Origin: Spirochaetia bacterium
GTDB taxonomy: Bacteria; Spirochaetota; Spirochaetia; SZUA-6; Bin103
Assembly (NCBI GenBank): GCA_965203905.1
Contig: CBDBDQ010000005.1
Coordinates: 5,776,155-5,840,154, forward strand
DNA: 64,000 bases
Reading direction: 5' to 3'
Positions 8,427 to 16,024 of this stretch are shown in pieces. The notes under the pieces are model-generated. The model was given only the letters and a program-made list of their open reading frames with translations. It had not been told where the DNA came from and made no database searches. Positions within the stretch are counted from its first letter, which is position 1. Every line of letters begins with the position of its first letter. A program made the position numbers and the translations under genes.

Positions 8427-9871
8427 TCAGGGTGCAGCACCTGCGTGTGCGGTGACCAGATGGCGCAACCATTCCGGCAACTCGACATCCGGCCGTAGCG
8501 CGACGACACCGACCCGGTGTCTGTCGACGTAGTCCTCGCAGGTGAGCCACTCCGTTTCGTCGGCGTTGGGGACCAGGAGCAACGCAAGATCCGGACGGCG
8601 AGCACCCCAGCGGAGCGCATCGTGGTACAGGTGGGCGCTCTCCGCCATCCCGTCGAGGATGTTTTTCTCCCCGCTGCGGTACTTGGCGTCCAGGACGATG
8701 AAACGCGTTGCGCCGTCACGGGTTTCCGATTTCAAGACGAGGTCAGGTACGTACTGTCGAGAAATCGACCAGGCATCCGCCTGCTCAGCGCCACATTTTT
8801 TTTGAAAGGTCTTCTGCAGATGGAGCGTGATCAGGTGACCGTCGCTGCGATGACCGATGACGCTCCGGCGATCGGAGCCCATCGCGCCCGCGTTCTTCCA
8901 CGCGTGGTCGGGCAGCCACTCCCTGAGTTTCCGGGCCAGAACCACAAGGCACCAACGCTCGTAGATTTCCCATGTCGGGCTGAGCGGCAGCAGGTCCTTC
9001 GGGTCCAGCCGATACACACCGCGCCGGAGAGCCTCCCACCCTACACGCCAGAACCGGCCGTACAGCGGATGCGCCGCAACGGCGTTGAGCCCAGCCGCGG
9101 TGACTTCGGCGCGCTGCACCTCGCTGAACGGCGAGTGGCGTTCAGCCATCACGAACTCGCGCTCCATCTCGCCGAGGATCTGCTTCCAGCGGGGTACGCG
9201 CCCCTTGACGCCAGTCCTCGTTTCCTGCGTGCGACGGTCGGCGAACTTGTCCAGCAGCCTGGTGAGCTCCCGGCACCGCAGGAGAAGCGCTCGAAGCATG
9301 GCAAGAGCGGATCGATTCGCCGGGACATCGAGCGTGCGCTCCACCGCCGGCACTTCCAGGACCGGGCCGTCGGCCGGGCCAGCCGGAAGGCTCAACCCTG
9401 CACCGCGCTGGATTGCCGCAAGCGTGGCAGGCCGACGGATGGCCGCCTGCAGCGTCCTCAGGTCGGTGCGCCGCGCGTCCCTGAGGGGGACGAATCGCCG
9501 CCGCGCCTTCAATACACTTACGGGCTCTCGCCGAAGAGCGGCGAGCGCCTGATTCAGTTCGCTTCGGCGCCGTCGCAACCGTTCGAGCCACACGAGTGGA
9601 TCATCGGTCTCTGCGAGCGCGCCGAGACGACGCCGGGCCGGTTCCTCACCGACCACGAGACGGGCGTCGAATTCGACAATCTCGTTGATCATGCGCTCGA
9701 ACAGGTCGCGGCCAGCCTTGCCGGCATCCGGGCTTACGTCGAGCCGCCATGTCCCGAGCACCCGATCGTCCCGATCCAGCAGCTCGGCGCGTACTTCGCC
9801 CGCATAGAACCCGGGCTCCCACACCCACTCGTTCCGAGCGGTCTCGACTTGGCTGAGCGGTTCGTCGTCGA
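8427..9871 (-). pseudogene. McrC-like (DUF2357 + PD-(D/E)XK) restriction subunit, distal segment of a gene split by an IS
   Basis: VPDLVLKSETRDGATRFIVLDAKYR nuclease motif. The reading frame stays open upstream of the listed start, up to the IS boundary at 9871/9872. Confidence 0.7.
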
Positions 9872-9903
9872 CTAGCCCAAGTTGCGCACTTTCTGACGTA
9901 AAC
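9872..9903. repeat. Left terminal inverted repeat of the IS1634-family element (pairs with 14153-14184)
   Basis: About 21 of 27 positions match the reverse complement of 14153-14184 by eye. CTAG is present at both outer edges. Confidence 0.7.
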
Positions 9904-9939
9904 TGTTTCTGTTACACGATTTGACATTTAAGTTTGTCA

Positions 9940-11082
9940 CTACAATCGATTCCTCCCCGGAAGCGGCGGGGTAGCCGGTATCCGTAACGTCCGGTAAATC
10001 TTGCGATGCTCCAACTCCGGCTGCGACGGCCGCCGCAGGCGGAGCACCGTCCCGTCCGTGCACTGGTGCACGATGGTCACCATTTGGTGGGTCGCCAACA
10101 GGTCGCGGATGGTCGGCCACGAGCGATAGTCGCCGTTCTCCTGCAAGCGCCGCTCGATGGCGTGCAGCAGATGGTAGGCCAGCAACGAGATGAAGATGTG
10201 CGCATCCACCCGCTCGCTGCGCTGATGAAACACCGGACGTATCCCCAGAGTGCTCTTCAGGTAGCGAAATGATCGTTCGATCCGGGTCAGCAGCACGTAC
10301 AGCTTCCACACCTCGGCTTCCGTCAGGTCGGTGCGATCGGTGCGCAGCAGATAGGTCCCGTCAAGCTCCTCGGCGAGTTGTTGCGCCGCATCCTTGCGGG
10401 CCCAGGTTACTTCCGCTCGGCCCTGCTCATCAGTGTGCAGCTGCAGCGTGTAGTAACGCGCTACGCGCGGATAGCGGCCCAATAGACGCCCGATTGCCCG
10501 GTTGATCTTCTCCGGCTGCTTCAGCCGGCCTGCTGCCACCCGCGTCTTGAGCTTCTCGGCATCCTCCTCCAACCGATGCTCGAACCGCTGCCGTATCGCG
10601 CGATCCTTGCTCGCCCGCGCGGCGCTGTGGCACAGCACGTACAACTCGCCCTGGTGCCGCCGCAACTGGCCGCAGACTACGACCTGCCCCTTCGCGTTCA
10701 CTTTCACCGGCACGTAGCGTGAGCTGTCAATCTCGGGAAACAACTCCTGGCGCTCGCTTTGTGGGGTGGTCACGATGTAGTGCTGGCCGCGCTGGCGCAG
10801 CAGTTCCAGGTTCTCGTCCGTAGCGATACCCCGATCCATGATCACCGTCGGTTGACTCGGCCAGCCGACGGCGCCTGTGGTGCGGCAGTCCAGGCTGGCG
10901 AGCATCCGTGCCATGCTGGTTTCGTCTTTGGTGTTGCCGGTGAATACTTCGTGCGCCTTGGGAAAGCCCTCGCCATCGAGCACCAGACCCACCACCACCT
11001 GCTTGCAGTCTGGTCGGTGATCCCGCGAGTAGCCATGCTCCGCCTTCTCGTTGCGCGCCGCGATGCCCTCGAAATAGGTGGA
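9940..11082 (-). pseudogene. IS1634-family transposase, C-terminal portion
   Basis: The frame upstream of the listed ORF reads ...SSTYFEGIAARNEKAEHGYSRDHRPDCKQVVVGLVLDGEGFP, the hallmark IS1634 block. It is cut off at about 11082. Confidence 0.8.
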
Positions 11083-13310
11083 AGAGACAACATGGAATCA
11101 AAAGGTCCGTTGCGATTTGATCGCGAGATCGCACGCCCGGTCAGGAACAGGAACTTGATATGATCGTTTACCAGCATTATTATATGAAACATGCAGCGCG
11201 CCACCCTGCAGCAACGCGCCGAGCGCTTGCAGGCCGCATACGAACTGTGCCGTCAGCACAGCGTGGCCGACGCGGTACGCTTGCTGGCCGCGCGTTTCGC
11301 CCTCTCTCCGGTGCAGGCGCGGCGCTACGTGCGCGCGGCACTCGATCTGAAGGCGCCGCCGGGACAAGCAGACACCAAGCTGCCGATCACCGTGCGCATC
11401 CCACGCCATCTGGTCGAGCAATTGCGGGCGCGGGCACGCGCGAGTGGTCGCAGCCTGGGTTCGCTGGTGGCGCAGGCGATCACCAATTTTCTCTCCGGCG
11501 GCAAGAACTGACCGCGGATGCCACGGTTCCGGTTACGGCACGTATTCGACCGGCTCGCCGCACAGCGCCTCGGGGAAGCCTATGAGCTCTTGGTCCCCGA
11601 ACGATCCTGGTCCACGCACGGAGGACACCAAGATGAACCGCACAGTCGCACCCACGCCGGAGACGGTGGCCGTGTACTTGAGAGTATCGAGCCAAGCCCA
11701 GCGCCACCGCGAGACGATCGCCAGTCAGCGTGAGGCGGTGCTGGAGCACGCCCGCAGCCGTGGTTGGAACATCCCCCACGAGCGCGTGTTCGCCGATGAC
11801 GGCTACAGCGGCGCGACGCTCGACCGTCCGGCGCTGGAAGCGTTACGCGACCTGGTTGCCAGCGGCGCGATCGCCACGATTCTGGCGTGGTCGGTCGACC
11901 GGCTGAGCCGCAACTTCGCCTACCAGATACTGCTGCAGGAAGAGTTCGCGCGCGCCGGGGCGCAGGTCGTGTTCGTCCAGGAGCCCGACGACGCCACGCC
12001 CCAGGGTATGCTGTTGCGGCAAATGCTGTCGGTGATCTCGGAGTATGAGCGAACCCAGATTGCCGAGCGCTCGCGGCGCGGCAAGCTGCACCGCGCCCGG
12101 CAGGGCTCACTGAACATGATCACGCGTGCGCCGTACGGGTACCGTCTGATCCCCAAGACCGAAACGTGCGGCGCTCGGCTCGAGATCGATGACGCCGAGG
12201 CGGACGTGGTGCGCCGGATCTATGACTGCTATCTGCGCGAGGGTCTGAAGATGAACGCCATCTCACGACGCCTCGATGCCGAAGGAATAAGACCGCGTCA
12301 CGCTGAGCGGTGGTCGACCTCGACCGTCGCGGTGATCCTGAGGAACGAGACCTACAGCGGGAAAGCAGCCTACTTGAAGACCACCAGCACCGGCCGGCGC
12401 ACGCGTCCCAACCGCACCGGACGCCAGCGGGCGGGTGCGGTACGGCGCCTGGTCGGACGCACCACGCGCCCGCGCGAGGAATGGATCAGTCTGGCGGTGC
12501 CCGCCATCCTGGATGAGACGACCTTCGCACGAGCGCAACAGCGGCGGGCGGACAACCGGCGCTTCTCGCCGCGCAAGACGGCGGTGTCGACCCTGCTGCA
12601 AGGGCTCTGCGTGTGTGCCGAGTGTGGCTACACCATCGGGCGGAATTCCGCCCAGACCAGTCGCAACAAGCCGCGGCGGCACTACTACCGCTGTCATGGC
12701 ATCGACAGTTGGCGGCGCGCGGAAGGAGCCGTGTGTGACAATCCTCCGGTCCGCGCCGACGAACTCGACGCAGCCGTTTGGAACGAAGTGCTCGCGCTGC
12801 TGGAGAATCCGCAGCTCATCCAGTCCGAAATCAACCGTCGGATCGCCGCCGCCAACGACACCACAACCGCCAGTCAGCGGATGCAGGTTCTGCGTGGCGA
12901 GTTGTCGCGCAACCAGAGCCAGCGTCGGCGCCTGCTGGATGCTTACCAAGCGGGCGTGGTGACGCTGGACGAGTTGCGGACACGAAATGCTCCACTACAA
13001 ACCCAGCAACGCTCGATGCTATCGGAGCTGAAAGCCTTGCAGACCTTCGAACTCGATCGTGAATCTCAGCTTACTCTTGCCGCGACGGTCGAACAGTTCC
13101 TCGGGCGCATGCGGGAGGGGGCGCAAGCACTGTCCCTTGCCGAGCGTCAGCGTGTCATCCGGCTACTGATTCGCGAGGTCAGGATTGGCAAGAAATCGGT
13201 TACGATATGCCATTCAATCCCGGTGAGCGGAGTATCTCCCGCGGGCTCAGATCGTTACGGTGGAGGATCTGCTCTAATGGCACCCGACCAAGGTGCACTT
13301 TTGATTCCAC
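11083..13310 (+). mobile_element. About 2.2-kb nested element (RHH protein + large serine recombinase) inserted inside the IS1634 transposase gene
   Basis: It interrupts the transposase between ...LYDLTTS and STYFEG... A 12-bp inverted repeat, TGGAATCAAAAG (11093-11104) / CTTTTGATTCCA (13298-13309), lies just inside both junctions. Boundaries are good to about 10 bp. Confidence 0.6.
11191..11511 (+). CDS. Ribbon-helix-helix (CopG-like) DNA-binding protein
   Basis: C-terminal KLPITVRIPRHLVEQLRARARASGRSLGSLVAQAITNFL is an RHH beta-alpha-alpha pattern. Confidence 0.6.
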   Translation: MQRATLQQRAERLQAAYELCRQHSVADAVRLLAARFALSPVQARRYVRAALDLKAPPGQADTKLPITVRIPRHLVEQLRARARASGRSLGSLVAQAITNFLSGGKN

Positions 13311-13777
13311 GATGTGGTAAGGTCGTAAAGGACGATCGTTTCATCGAGCGCGAACAGCTCTCGCTCGCGTGCTGCCAGCTCGGTTTCGATTGCCACCCGA
13401 TGCTCATACAACTGATCCGAGACCCGGTAGAGCGCATCCTTGGTCACACTCCTCATGCTACCGGGCATCAGCTCAGCAAGCGCCGTGCGTGCAAACCAGC
13501 CAACCGTGCCCAACTCGCTACGTGGCGCCAGCAGTCTGCCCACCACCTGGATCTCGGCCAACCGGCACTGCCGCGCAGAGAACCCGCAGCGCTGCAGGAT
13601 CTGGTCGCAGCGCAGATGCTCCCAGAACACGTGCGCGACGTACTCCGGGCCGAGTTCGCGCAGCAGCTCACTGCTGCTGCGCTCGGGATAGACCTCCTTG
13701 GCGGGCCCGTGTCCGTCCCGCTGAGCTTGCTGACGCTGCTGCTTGCTGCGGATGCGTTCGGCGAACGGAGCCGCTAG
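11633..13777 (+). CDS. Large serine recombinase; the ORF has no stop inside its own element and reads about 155 codons into antisense IS sequence
   Basis: ATG 11633 lies 9 nt after GGAGG. VAVYLRVSSQAQRHRETIASQREAV...AWSVDRLSRN (resolvase domain), recombinase domain, Cys-rich zinc ribbon (CVCAECGY...YYRCHG), coiled coil. Recombinase-like sequence ends near 13300. Confidence 0.85.
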   Translation: MNRTVAPTPETVAVYLRVSSQAQRHRETIASQREAVLEHARSRGWNIPHERVFADDGYSGATLDRPALEALRDLVASGAIATILAWSVDRLSRNFAYQILLQEEFARAGAQVVFVQEPDDATPQGMLLRQMLSVISEYERTQIAERSRRGKLHRARQGSLNMITRAPYGYRLIPKTETCGARLEIDDAEADVVRRIYDCYLREGLKMNAISRRLDAEGIRPRHAERWSTSTVAVILRNETYSGKAAYLKTTSTGRRTRPNRTGRQRAGAVRRLVGRTTRPREEWISLAVPAILDETTFARAQQRRADNRRFSPRKTAVSTLLQGLCVCAECGYTIGRNSAQTSRNKPRRHYYRCHGIDSWRRAEGAVCDNPPVRADELDAAVWNEVLALLENPQLIQSEINRRIAAANDTTTASQRMQVLRGELSRNQSQRRRLLDAYQAGVVTLDELRTRNAPLQTQQRSMLSELKALQTFELDRESQLTLAATVEQFLGRMREGAQALSLAERQRVIRLLIREVRIGKKSVTICHSIPVSGVSPAGSDRYGGGSALMAPDQGALLIPRCGKVVKDDRFIEREQLSLACCQLGFDCHPMLIQLIRDPVERILGHTPHATGHQLSKRRACKPANRAQLATWRQQSAHHLDLGQPALPRREPAALQDLVAAQMLPEHVRDVLRAEFAQQLTAAALGIDLLGGPVSVPLSLLTLLLAADAFGERSR

Positions 13778-14008
13778 TTGGTCCAGGTCAGAAGTCCCGA
13801 ACGGCACCCGTTCCTGGTGATTGAGGAGATCTTCGATGCGTTCGGCCAAGCGTGGCCACTCGGACTTCGGCAGATCCAGAGTGCCGAGGCTCAAGACCAG
13901 CCGCTGGCGTGGGCCTTTGTCGGTGCGAACCGACTCCAGCAGCCGGTGGTAAGTGTAGGAACGACCGTTACGGGAGACCTTGAGCTGGCCGATGAACACG
14001 TGCCGCAA
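13274..14008 (-). pseudogene. IS1634-family transposase, N-terminal portion
   Basis: MRHVFIGQLKVSRNGRSYTYHRLLESVRTDKGPRQR... ends ...ETIVLYDLTTS and then runs into foreign sequence. Confidence 0.8.
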
Positions 14009-14184
14009 AGATACTGCATCGGCTCGTGGCCGCCAAGAAGAATTATAACTAAGTTCGAGCCATCCATACGATTTATAACTACATCGGCAAAATCTCTCAA
14101 TTGCACCCTTCCAGCCGCCTCCTTTTCGCCTTTATCACCCCCGAAACTTGCTCGTTACGTCGAAATGTGCTCAAGTTGGGCTAG

Positions 14185-14326: not shown

Positions 14327-16024
14327 CTACCGCCAGAAGCGGAAGCTGCCGGTCTCTTTCAGGTCCTGGATGAGCTCCGCGACCTTGTCGGCGCACCGTG
14401 TCAGGTTGCGTGCCTTCAGCACCTCCTGGCACTTCCCCAGCGCACCACGAGCGCGCGCGGAGTCGTCTCCCCGCAGCTTCGGCAGGACCTTCGCGTAGAT
14501 CACTCGGTCGAGCGCGTCACGCGTGGACAGTTCGGCGCTCTGCTCCTGCCGCAACTCCATGAACTGCAAGACTTCGGCGATAACCCGCCAGCCGAAGTGC
14601 AACCGAGCCGGGCTGAGCGCGTCCATCAGATCATTGAGAACCTCTCTGACATGCGTCCTGTCCGATGCTTCGATTTCGCACTTGTCCCAACCCGGCCATC
14701 GATCTACGTCGATGTCCCAGAACTCGAGCGTAAAGGCGCGGTCCAGGACCTTGTCCGAGATGCCCATGGTGGTTTCGTCCATGTTCACCGTGCCGATGAG
14801 GAAGGAGTTTCCGGGATAGCGGATGCTTGGTGGTACTCCGTCCTTGTTGCCGTCGCCGTCGTGGAGCGGTATGTCACCGTCGTCGCGCTCCATCGCACTG
14901 AGAATCGGCGCCAGGTACTGCTCGGGATGCGACAGGTTCATCTCGTCGAGCACACACACGTGCGGCTCGGTCGGATTCACGGACGCGCGAATCAGGAATT
15001 TCAGAAACTCCGGTTGGATGTATCCACCCTCCCCGAGCGGGTTGACGTAACCGAGCAGTGGCGTCGGGTCATACCAACCGGGCTGCACCGGGATGGTACA
15101 TACCTGCTCGTTCGACTCGCCGGTCGCTCCGGTCAACGCCTCCGCGTACTTCAGGGCGAGTTGGGTCTTGCCGGTTCCGGACAGGCCGGTGAGCACGCCG
15201 AAGTGCCGCCGCTCGTGCGCCCAGAGACCAAGGTGAAGCGCCTCTACCACTTCGGCATCGAACACCAAGTCGCCGTCGTTGCGGAGCGACTCGAAGTACT
15301 CCTTGACTCGGTCCAGCGGTCGCGGGGCAACCGTCTGCAACGGCTGCTCGGCCGAATTGCCAGCGGAGTTCGGTGGGCCTTGTTGCAGAAACCCGCGATA
15401 GACTGCTTCGGGCAGCATCATTCTTCGCGCCACAGCGTTCCAGTCGGAACGATCGGCCGCACCTAACGCCTCGTCAAGCCGCAGGATTATCTCGCGGTTC
15501 GCCCGTGCGGGATACTTTGCTGACCACTGTCTTTCTTCCATGGAATGGAGGAGGTCCTTGCGGTCTGGTGGCTTGACAAGGGTTGTGAAGTCATTCGGGA
15601 AGAGCGTGGCAAACACACGCGTCATTTTGTACGCTGGCGCGGATCGCTTATTGGTCGGGCCAACCGGGGGCATGTGCGGCCGTATGTCCTTCTTCATCTC
15701 ATTGTACGCGTTGTCGAGCTGACGTGCCCTTTCAGCTGAATCTTCCGGTAGAGGTGCTGTGGTCAACTCTAGAAAGCGCTGGCGAAAGTCGGGAGCCGCC
15801 AAGGCGTTCGTGACGTCGAAGGTGTCGTCAGTATCTATCTCGACTAGCGGGTTCTCCAGCCAGACAAGGTGCAGGAACTCTTCGCTACCCCGCTCTGCCT
15901 CCGGAGTCTTACTGATCCGCTCCAGGAAATCGGCGTTCCTGACAATCGATTCTGGATCAAGTCGGCGTTCCGCTTCGCGACACGCGTTCTGCAGCCCTTC
16001 CTTTGTGCTCAGGTCAAAACGCAA
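14327..16024 (-). CDS. McrB-like AAA+ (AAA_5) GTPase subunit of a type IV restriction system
   Basis: GLSGTGKTQLALKYAEAL Walker A, CVLDEMNLSHPEQYLAPILS, FLIGTVNMDETT. N-terminal about 250 aa of unknown specificity. Confidence 0.85.
   Translation of the reverse strand: MRFDLSTKEGLQNACREAERRLDPESIVRNADFLERISKTPEAERGSEEFLHLVWLENPLVEIDTDDTFDVTNALAAPDFRQRFLELTTAPLPEDSAERARQLDNAYNEMKKDIRPHMPPVGPTNKRSAPAYKMTRVFATLFPNDFTTLVKPPDRKDLLHSMEERQWSAKYPARANREIILRLDEALGAADRSDWNAVARRMMLPEAVYRGFLQQGPPNSAGNSAEQPLQTVAPRPLDRVKEYFESLRNDGDLVFDAEVVEALHLGLWAHERRHFGVLTGLSGTGKTQLALKYAEALTGATGESNEQVCTIPVQPGWYDPTPLLGYVNPLGEGGYIQPEFLKFLIRASVNPTEPHVCVLDEMNLSHPEQYLAPILSAMERDDGDIPLHDGDGNKDGVPPSIRYPGNSFLIGTVNMDETTMGISDKVLDRAFTLEFWDIDVDRWPGWDKCEIEASDRTHVREVLNDLMDALSPARLHFGWRVIAEVLQFMELRQEQSAELSTRDALDRVIYAKVLPKLRGDDSARARGALGKCQEVLKARNLTRCADKVAELIQDLKETGSFRFWR

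Follow-up and report, generated by a model that had tools for sequence, protein, structure and literature searches.

The 64-kb stretch of DNA analysed here (the window), from the genome of a Spirochaetia bacterium, contains a 2233-bp element that covers positions 11086-13316 plus one copy of a 2-bp crossover core and interrupts the transposase gene of an IS1634-family insertion sequence (IS). It carries two genes only, one for a 106-aa protein with helix-turn-helix (HTH) and ribbon-helix-helix (RHH) parts and one for a large serine recombinase (LSR), and is free of cargo. Very probably it is an autonomous integrative element with the LSR as its sole enzyme, in which the 3' end of the LSR gene contains the attachment site attP and the C-terminal tail of the enzyme is detached on integration. 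Among LSR integrative elements it is set apart by its lack of cargo, its parasitism of other mobile elements and a recombinase gene that is split by its own attP. An earlier note, made from the sequence, had placed within an IS1634 transposase an insert with an RHH gene (11191-11511) and an LSR gene (from 11633), and both genes were confirmed by their open reading frames (ORFs) and by Pfam matches.

Boundaries and target site

The 12-bp sequence TGGAATCAAAAG occurs twice in the window, at 11093-11104 on the forward strand and at 13298-13309 on the reverse strand; the chance expectation was 0.10, and two matches were obtained in 0 of 100 shuffles, bearing out the terminal inverted repeat of the earlier note as an exact pair. 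A repeat finder returned an inverted repeat of 18 nt with 89% complementarity (11087-11104 and 13298-13315). The ends first proposed, 11083 and 13310, had to be corrected. Alignment of the junctions with 14 related loci gave ...target-GT-rACAACrTGGAAyCAAAAG on the left and CTTTTGrTTCCACGATGTG-GT-CAGrTCG...target on the right, and the boundaries are 11086 and 13316, with cores at 11084-11085 (GA here, GT in most relatives) and 13317-13318 (GT). As predicted from these junctions, attP consists of two 19-bp imperfect inverted half-sites flanking a GT core, namely a P half-site (CTTTTGATTCCACGATGTG, 13298-13316, forward strand) that is kept in attR and encodes L-L-I-P-R-C-G of the LSR, and a P' half-site (GACAACATGGAATCAAAAG, 11086-11104, forward strand) that is kept in attL. 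The suggestion that the terminal repeat represents remnants of attP was upheld, as its position and sequence are kept in all the related loci, with 19-bp arms around the GT core. Joining the ends in silico, 13316 to 11086, would produce the circle junction ...CGATGTG-GT-GACAACATGG.... When CG, CA, AC, GA, GG or TG was tried by hand as the core, either in the same place or next to it, the transposase frame was broken, attP became asymmetric or fewer loci were matched than with GT.

The host IS occupies 9869-14014 on the reverse strand and is ~1.91 kb long without the insert, as judged by alignment to two intact paralogues in the same genome that lack the insert (C1:5361-7275 and C5:1277407-1279318; 85% identical). 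Homology to these paralogues ends at 11085 and restarts at 13320, and an unfilled paralogue reads GA at the core position, from a TCT Ser codon. On the same strand, the transposase ORF is divided into an N-terminal part (13319-14008, to ...IVLYDL) and a C-terminal part (9940-11083, ...STYFEG to the stop). Removal of the element with one core copy restores a 652-codon open frame across the junction, ...ETIVLYDL/TSTYFEG... (the slash marks the junction), and the rejoined protein scored 338 bits against the NCBIfam IS1634 model NF033559 (cut-off 100), in agreement with the insertion inside an IS1634 transposase that had been noted before. Its DDE_Tnp_1 match spans residues 217-534, with the junction at the N-terminal edge of this domain. 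The possibility that the insert is a part of the IS was ruled out by the paralogues without it and by the presence of the same element in unrelated IS lineages.

The target is specific. All four target lineages examined passed NF033559 (the three others with 254-328 bits) and share little DNA similarity, and a conserved attB of ~30-40 bp, with the consensus CCCTCGAAGTAGGTGkwG-GT-CAGrTCGwAsAG, was found in this single gene family. It corresponds to the antisense strand of the (L)(Y/F)-D-L-(T/S)-x-T-Y-F-E-G codons of IS1634-family transposases, and the LSR gene is antisense to the transposase in every case. We take this block to carry the first catalytic Asp, following the IS4/IS1634 signature, of which D-x-T, D-R-G and Y-x2-R-x3-E-x6-K are all visible in the rejoined protein.

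No known RNA family was detected in 9800-14100. A weak terminator-like hairpin, GCACC-N7-GGTGC, lies at 13280-13296 on the forward strand just 5' of the P half-site, the CTTTTG of which supplies the T-run. The host IS is itself flanked by genes for a McrC-like DUF2357 and PD-(D/E)XK protein (8427-9824, reverse strand) and a McrB-like AAA_5 protein (14327-16024, reverse strand), which gives a three-level nesting of the LSR element within the IS and of the IS within a restriction-type locus.

The divided recombinase gene

The LSR gene starts with an ATG at 11633, preceded by GGAGGA, and its body on the forward strand covers 562 codons, core included, to 13318. Pfam searches of the window matched the Resolvase domain (PF00239) to residues 12-159 with 118.9 bits, and Recombinase (PF07508) and Zn_ribbon_recom (PF13408) were above their cut-offs; the serine nucleophile motif YLRVSSQAQ is present. 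Alignment with characterised integrases, proposed earlier as a means of locating the natural C-terminus, recovered the canonical fold: residues 26-518 aligned to the SPbeta integrase (9dxh), coiled-coil region included, and the alignment with the A118 integrase reached residue 524. Because the canonical fold aligns only this far, the gene ends in a variable linker followed by a conserved tail, which straddles attP.

In the integrated state, as the earlier note had claimed, the LSR frame has no stop 5' of the right junction and runs on through it, over 152 codons of antisense IS sequence and a stop at 13775-13777 (13319-13777, forward strand), to give a protein of 714 aa; this read-through is unconserved among relatives. 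In the circle assembled in silico the frame would stop soon past the left end, as had also been predicted, but at a TGA at 11161-11163, 25 codons past the core rather than about a dozen. These last 25 codons (11086-11160) and their stop, DNMESKGPLRFDREIARPVRNRNLI followed by TGA (11086-11163, forward strand), share the reading frame of the LSR in the excised circle alone, where the protein would be 587 aa long and attP would take up codons 556-568 of 587. With attP embedded in the 3' end of the gene, the frame crosses it and ends 25 codons later, at the 5' side of the promoter of the small gene. The stop falls in the spacer of this sigma-70-like sequence (TTGATA-17-TATTAT, 11155-11183, forward strand), which is the sole promoter-like site in 10950-13500, with 0.3 expected by chance.

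The split ORF is a property of the whole family. Proteins called for close homologues (56-90% identity) measure 549-994 aa and share ...VTICHSIP, ~25 variable residues and LL(I/V)PRCGQ(V/I)V, after which they continue into unrelated sequence; the same change from LLxPRCx to unrelated sequence was seen in 67 of 120 database homologues. When element ends were joined head to tail in silico, every intact copy yielded 22-26 further codons and then a stop, for a protein of 584-589 aa, compared with 549-841 aa when integrated. The proposal that the C-terminus depends on the state of the element is therefore well supported, with unrelated tails on the integrated proteins and a conserved tail on the in-silico circles. 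The earlier note had allowed that other copies might have different ends, or that a conserved stop might have been mutated in this copy alone. Relatives share the same ends, and decay through a lost stop was ruled out, since a stop upstream of the junction is absent from every relative. From these comparisons, the missing stop reads as a family-wide design feature and not as decay.

The tail gained by the circle is conserved, as (D/N)N(V/M)E(S/P)KG(A/P)LxF(D/E)RxIARPxR.... Its first six codons would be conserved regardless because they form the P' arm and are under constraint as DNA. Over the next 13 codons (39 nt beyond the inverted repeat) the ratio of nonsynonymous to synonymous changes (pN/pS) was 0.42 in the LSR frame versus 1.33 and 1.65 in the other two frames, a limited statistic as it is based on 13 codons and 12 non-independent sequences. 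A conserved Arg of the tail is encoded variously by CGA, CGC, CGG and CGT. A sister lineage whose LSRs are 44-49% identical (described below) also has the motif K-G-x-[LF]-x-F-[ED]-R-x-I, and one database protein of the IS1634-type lineage, P0062 (69% identical), has it within a contiguous circle-type tail, ...RCRHSLNTKGNFSFERQIDGWRGRPMLD....

P0062 is a 597-aa protein from an ENA contig of 13.3 kb and, among the close LSR homologues listed, is the only one called with an unbroken tail of the circle type. An intact attP could be present at its locus, as part of a tandem copy, of a circle or of a replicon that has not integrated.

The small gene (11191-11511, forward strand) has its ATG 8 nt 3' of the promoter, and because of this spacing its mRNA is probably leaderless; similar sequence was seen by eye at the promoter position in relatives. 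The 106-aa product matched Arc in Pfam (E 2.5e-5), while its RHH_1 score of 19.5 bits was just under the gathering cut-off of 20.5 bits, and it is conserved across the IS1634-type and sister lineages (alignment A1). An AlphaFold2 model (pLDDT 84.6) shows three helices in an N-terminal domain, then a linker and a further two helices at the C-terminus, and the C-terminal part reads as a ribbon-helix-helix on the basis of the model, the Pfam match to Arc and weak fold matches to Arc, CopG and VapB. We regard the protein as a candidate repressor and/or directionality factor. A profile built on it retrieved at least 3,963 clusters at 90% identity from public data (E <= 1e-5), almost all of them unannotated; many come from contigs no longer than 2.5 kb, and the small number with a name are annotated as hypothetical or "YafY".

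Relatives and movement of the element

The same layout was found at more than 15 loci (LSR 56-90% identical), with 19-bp inverted half-sites, an antisense IS1634-family transposase as target and an LSR frame that runs into the flank. At 14 further loci from genomes and metagenomes, and likewise at L028 and L029, an RHH gene and an LSR gene make up an element of 2227-2239 bp. The 19-bp arms surround the core in all 14 loci of the junction alignment, GT is present at both junctions in 11 of the 14, and removal of the element restores transposase frames of ~570-650 codons, again in 11 of the 14, with a shorter frame of 401 codons in one more, L019.

Recent movement is evident from pairs of loci within single samples. 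The elements of L019 and L020 are 99.9% identical while their flanking IS copies are 69-76% identical, and those of L024 and L025 are 99.8% identical in IS copies that are unalignable; between the window and L017 the element is 88% and the host IS 79% identical. Since near-identical elements occupy divergent IS copies, the element moves on its own and recognises a motif rather than one IS. In one genome, G416, three copies of one IS were all filled and none was empty. The LSR of the window shows 87-90% identity to its closest relatives and has no frameshifts. Of 41 genomes related to the host organism, one other encodes an LSR with more than 40% identity, and a close homologue was found in no other genome among 401 of the class or among 401 of the phylum.

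L026, on a 5.5-Mb ENA contig (ctg21648c), has an IS1634-type element between aminotransferase and tetratricopeptide-repeat (TPR) genes, outside any transposase, with deviant arms, differing cores (AA/GA) and an LSR called N-terminally short; it may be an insertion at a pseudo-site or a decayed relic. L021, L022 and L023, from one ENA sample, carry an identical element in host IS copies that are 99.9-100% identical, in three different genomic contexts, two of which have a DruA gene and an IS66-type transposase next to the IS. This would mean either that the disrupted IS can still be moved in trans or that the invasion of three copies was recent.

A sister lineage has a different target. In L036-L038 the reverse transcriptase (RT) gene of a group II intron is interrupted by an element of 2239 bp that encodes a homologue of the small protein and an LSR of 560 aa; both junctions read GT, and the 24-bp arms are perfect. 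Once the element is removed, a 453-aa RT results that reads GVPQGGVV/SPLLSNIYL across the junction (slash), and the circle-form LSR would be 586 aa long with the tail ...HALNAKDNFQFERIISDWKRGF.... LSRs of this lineage end in ...YLLRSG(R/S) followed by variable sequence. When JGI metagenome contigs were scanned with an attP pattern that covers both lineages, a single contig, L039, was returned. It belongs to the sister lineage and contains an integrated junction with the N-terminal part of an RT gene, one full unit of 2240 bp, an unbroken attP palindrome and the first 98 nt of a second unit, an exact repeat of the start of the first. This is a head-to-tail junction, and the LSR frame across it reads ...YLLRSGSNHSLNAKGNFQFDRRVVYR followed by a stop. 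As k-mers spanning P-GT-P' were necessarily present in the reads, circles or tandem copies exist in the L039 sample.

Sister-lineage copies were also seen closer to the window. One, at C5:1550159-1552283 of the same genome (L009, L041), has the small protein and a frameshift-split LSR that ends in YLLRSGR. Another is in a genome of the same genus (L002), where the flank beside one arm encodes G-I-G-T-P-H-G-A-I-V, which resembles the RT motif.

Proposed cycle, alternatives and known systems

We propose that the LSR would recombine attP with an attB of ~40 bp in an IS1634-family transposase gene, which would disrupt the transposase and cut off the 25-codon tail of the LSR and its stop. With tail and stop lost on integration, the integrated LSR gene reads on into the flank. 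Precise excision, attL by attR, would make the transposase ORF whole again and return the LSR gene to its full length. The tail presumably matters at the circle stage, for integration, stability or directionality; the tail-less enzyme of the integrated state would still excise, possibly helped by the RHH protein, and the enzyme may tolerate a one-base core mismatch. More tentatively, and we would not put it beyond a possibility, the topology of the gene may be a directionality switch, in which the conserved tail of the 587-aa circle form would be required for attP by attB integration or would favour it and the tail-less integrated form, with its junk extension, would excise only, perhaps with the HTH-RHH protein, and the family may represent a large undescribed class of IS-sized hyperparasitic LSR elements that acquire new targets among the catalytic-motif codons of mobile elements.

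Several observations weigh against the proposed cycle. The window copy shows no sign of excision or circles, and no second copy of the element or attP site was found in the assembly. For none of the filled IS copies did a near-identical empty site turn up; the own genome offers 85% identical paralogues only, and all three copies in G416 are filled. A strict attP pattern for the IS1634 lineage had no match in JGI metagenome and IMG/VR contigs, in which this lineage is hardly represented. The few codons and related sequences behind the tail pN/pS must be added to these, and part of the tail conservation could reflect an overlapping operator for the RHH protein. Finally, the asymmetric cores and deviant attB of the window copy mean that this copy may be locked in.

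This last point leads to the alternative that survives best, namely that the window copy is a dead, immobilised relic of a family that is active elsewhere, which we consider possible but doubtful. It has GA at 11084-11085 and GT at 13317-13318, and its attB is the most deviant of the set. It is a single copy in an 8-Mb genome in which two further IS1634 paralogues were available, and its small-protein gene is found in this genome only among 401 sampled from the phylum. Both genes are intact, however, and the LSR has the high identity to its closest relatives given above, without frameshifts. The core asymmetry also recurs in at least two other independent insertions: L027 has the same left GA and right GT, and L012 has GT on the left and CT on the right, such that in each of the three one junction keeps GT and the other is one base off. 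In L039, judged by eye, one junction reads AT and the attP reads GT, the right core not being seen. Classical serine integrases are not known to ligate mismatched cores. The pattern would be expected if an attP with GT were recombined with an attB that has a single differing base in its core and the heteroduplex were then resolved by replication, which fits tolerance rather than decay; either the family tolerates a core mismatch, or these copies mutated later and are locked in.

Another possibility is that the element is as described above but the split C-terminus has no function, the overlap with attP being a matter of compactness and the left end being constrained as DNA, through the outer attP, the promoter and an RHH operator. 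The first 13 codons of the tail region coincide exactly with the attP arms, so that DNA constraint alone suffices there; the stop lies in an AT-rich promoter, where stops arise in any frame; and integrated copies put up with 150-430 aa of junk extension. We nevertheless think this improbable. Outside the arms, most substitutions are synonymous in the LSR frame and in no other, the Arg is kept through four different codons, and F-(E/D)-R-x-I is retained in the intron-targeting lineage and in P0062 despite different DNA, with no DNA motif common to the lineages in that stretch by eye. Least probable is that the element has been domesticated, or is mutualistic, as a switch for the reversible silencing of IS1634 transposases, comparable to the skin or fdxN elements. 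In its favour, precise removal restores the transposase frame and all three copies of one IS are occupied in G416. Against it, unrelated IS lineages of one sample harbour near-identical elements, and relatives of the element are spread over distant taxa and are also present in another type of mobile-element gene; both patterns are typical of horizontal selfish spread, and no host regulatory link is visible.

The proposed arrangement comes closest to Tn4451 (below) and to the suicidal tyrosine integrases of SSV1/SSV2, pTN3 and pT26-2, in which the integrase ORF contains an att site, is divided by integration and is complete in the free circle alone (PMC8371274, PMC5861418). Recombinases that interrupt the gene encoding them have been reviewed as exclusive to archaea (PMC8371274; see also PMC5861418). 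Those integrases are tyrosine enzymes of archaeal viruses and plasmids that target tRNA genes and are inactivated by a split in mid-gene, whereas the window element has a bacterial serine recombinase, all recognised domains of which stay intact and only the last 25 codons of which are detached. As the enzyme is a serine recombinase and only 25 C-terminal codons are lost, it works like the suicidal-integrase class without being a member of it.

Phage Mx8 reportedly has its attP in the 3' end of intP, and integration is said to change the C-terminus and turn intP into intX. Mx8 differs in being a phage of ~50 kb with a tyrosine integrase and a tRNA locus as its target. The clostridial transposons Tn4451/Tn4453 (TnpX) and Tn5397 (TndX) are alike in that an LSR alone excises a circle and re-inserts it. 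The Tn4451 circle junction reportedly creates a promoter for tnpX, which makes expression dependent on state. Tn4451 and Tn5397 are distinguished by a size of 6-21 kb, by cargo, by short GA-centred targets of low specificity and by the reconstitution of a promoter rather than of a coding end. The DUF4368 domain that is typical of the TnpX/TndX clade (PMC10083194) was not found by Pfam in the window LSR.

The SPbeta SprA, A118/LI, Bxb1, phiC31 and phiRv1 integrases share the domain set and fold, short inverted half-sites, a 2-bp core and integration without target duplication, and phiRv1 is said to integrate into a repetitive element as well. Phages and integrative and conjugative elements with such enzymes bring along cargo of tens of kb, keep attP outside the int ORF and depend on dedicated recombination directionality factors, whereas the window element has no cargo, has attP inside the ORF and targets the catalytic-motif codons of other mobile elements. 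The skin element (SpoIVCA) and the fdxN element (XisF) are similar in that an LSR excises precisely and restores an interrupted ORF; the window LSR matched the NCBIfam recomb_XisF model weakly (94 bits, cut-off 375). Those elements are large, vertically inherited and host-regulated, and the family described here moves between unrelated IS copies and taxa. Full-text literature searches brought up neither LSR elements in IS1634 or intron RT genes nor a serine recombinase with attP in its own ORF, in line with the earlier view that a cargo-free LSR element of this size is unusual.

The family represents an overlooked class of IS-sized LSR elements that invade catalytic-motif codons of other mobile elements, those of IS1634 transposases and those of the PQGG..SP motif of group II intron RTs. 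A practical consequence is that gene callers yield chimeric recombinases of 549-994 aa, the C-termini of which are antisense transposase sequence. Each lineage also offers a compact LSR with a computed attP (~40 bp) and attB as a potential tool, and tolerance of a one-base core mismatch, if true, would be unusual for this class of enzyme. A layout in which a recombinase splits its own gene would extend to bacteria and to serine recombinases, and, should the directionality switch prove true, the family would provide a bacterial serine-recombinase counterpart of the logic of the archaeal suicidal integrases.

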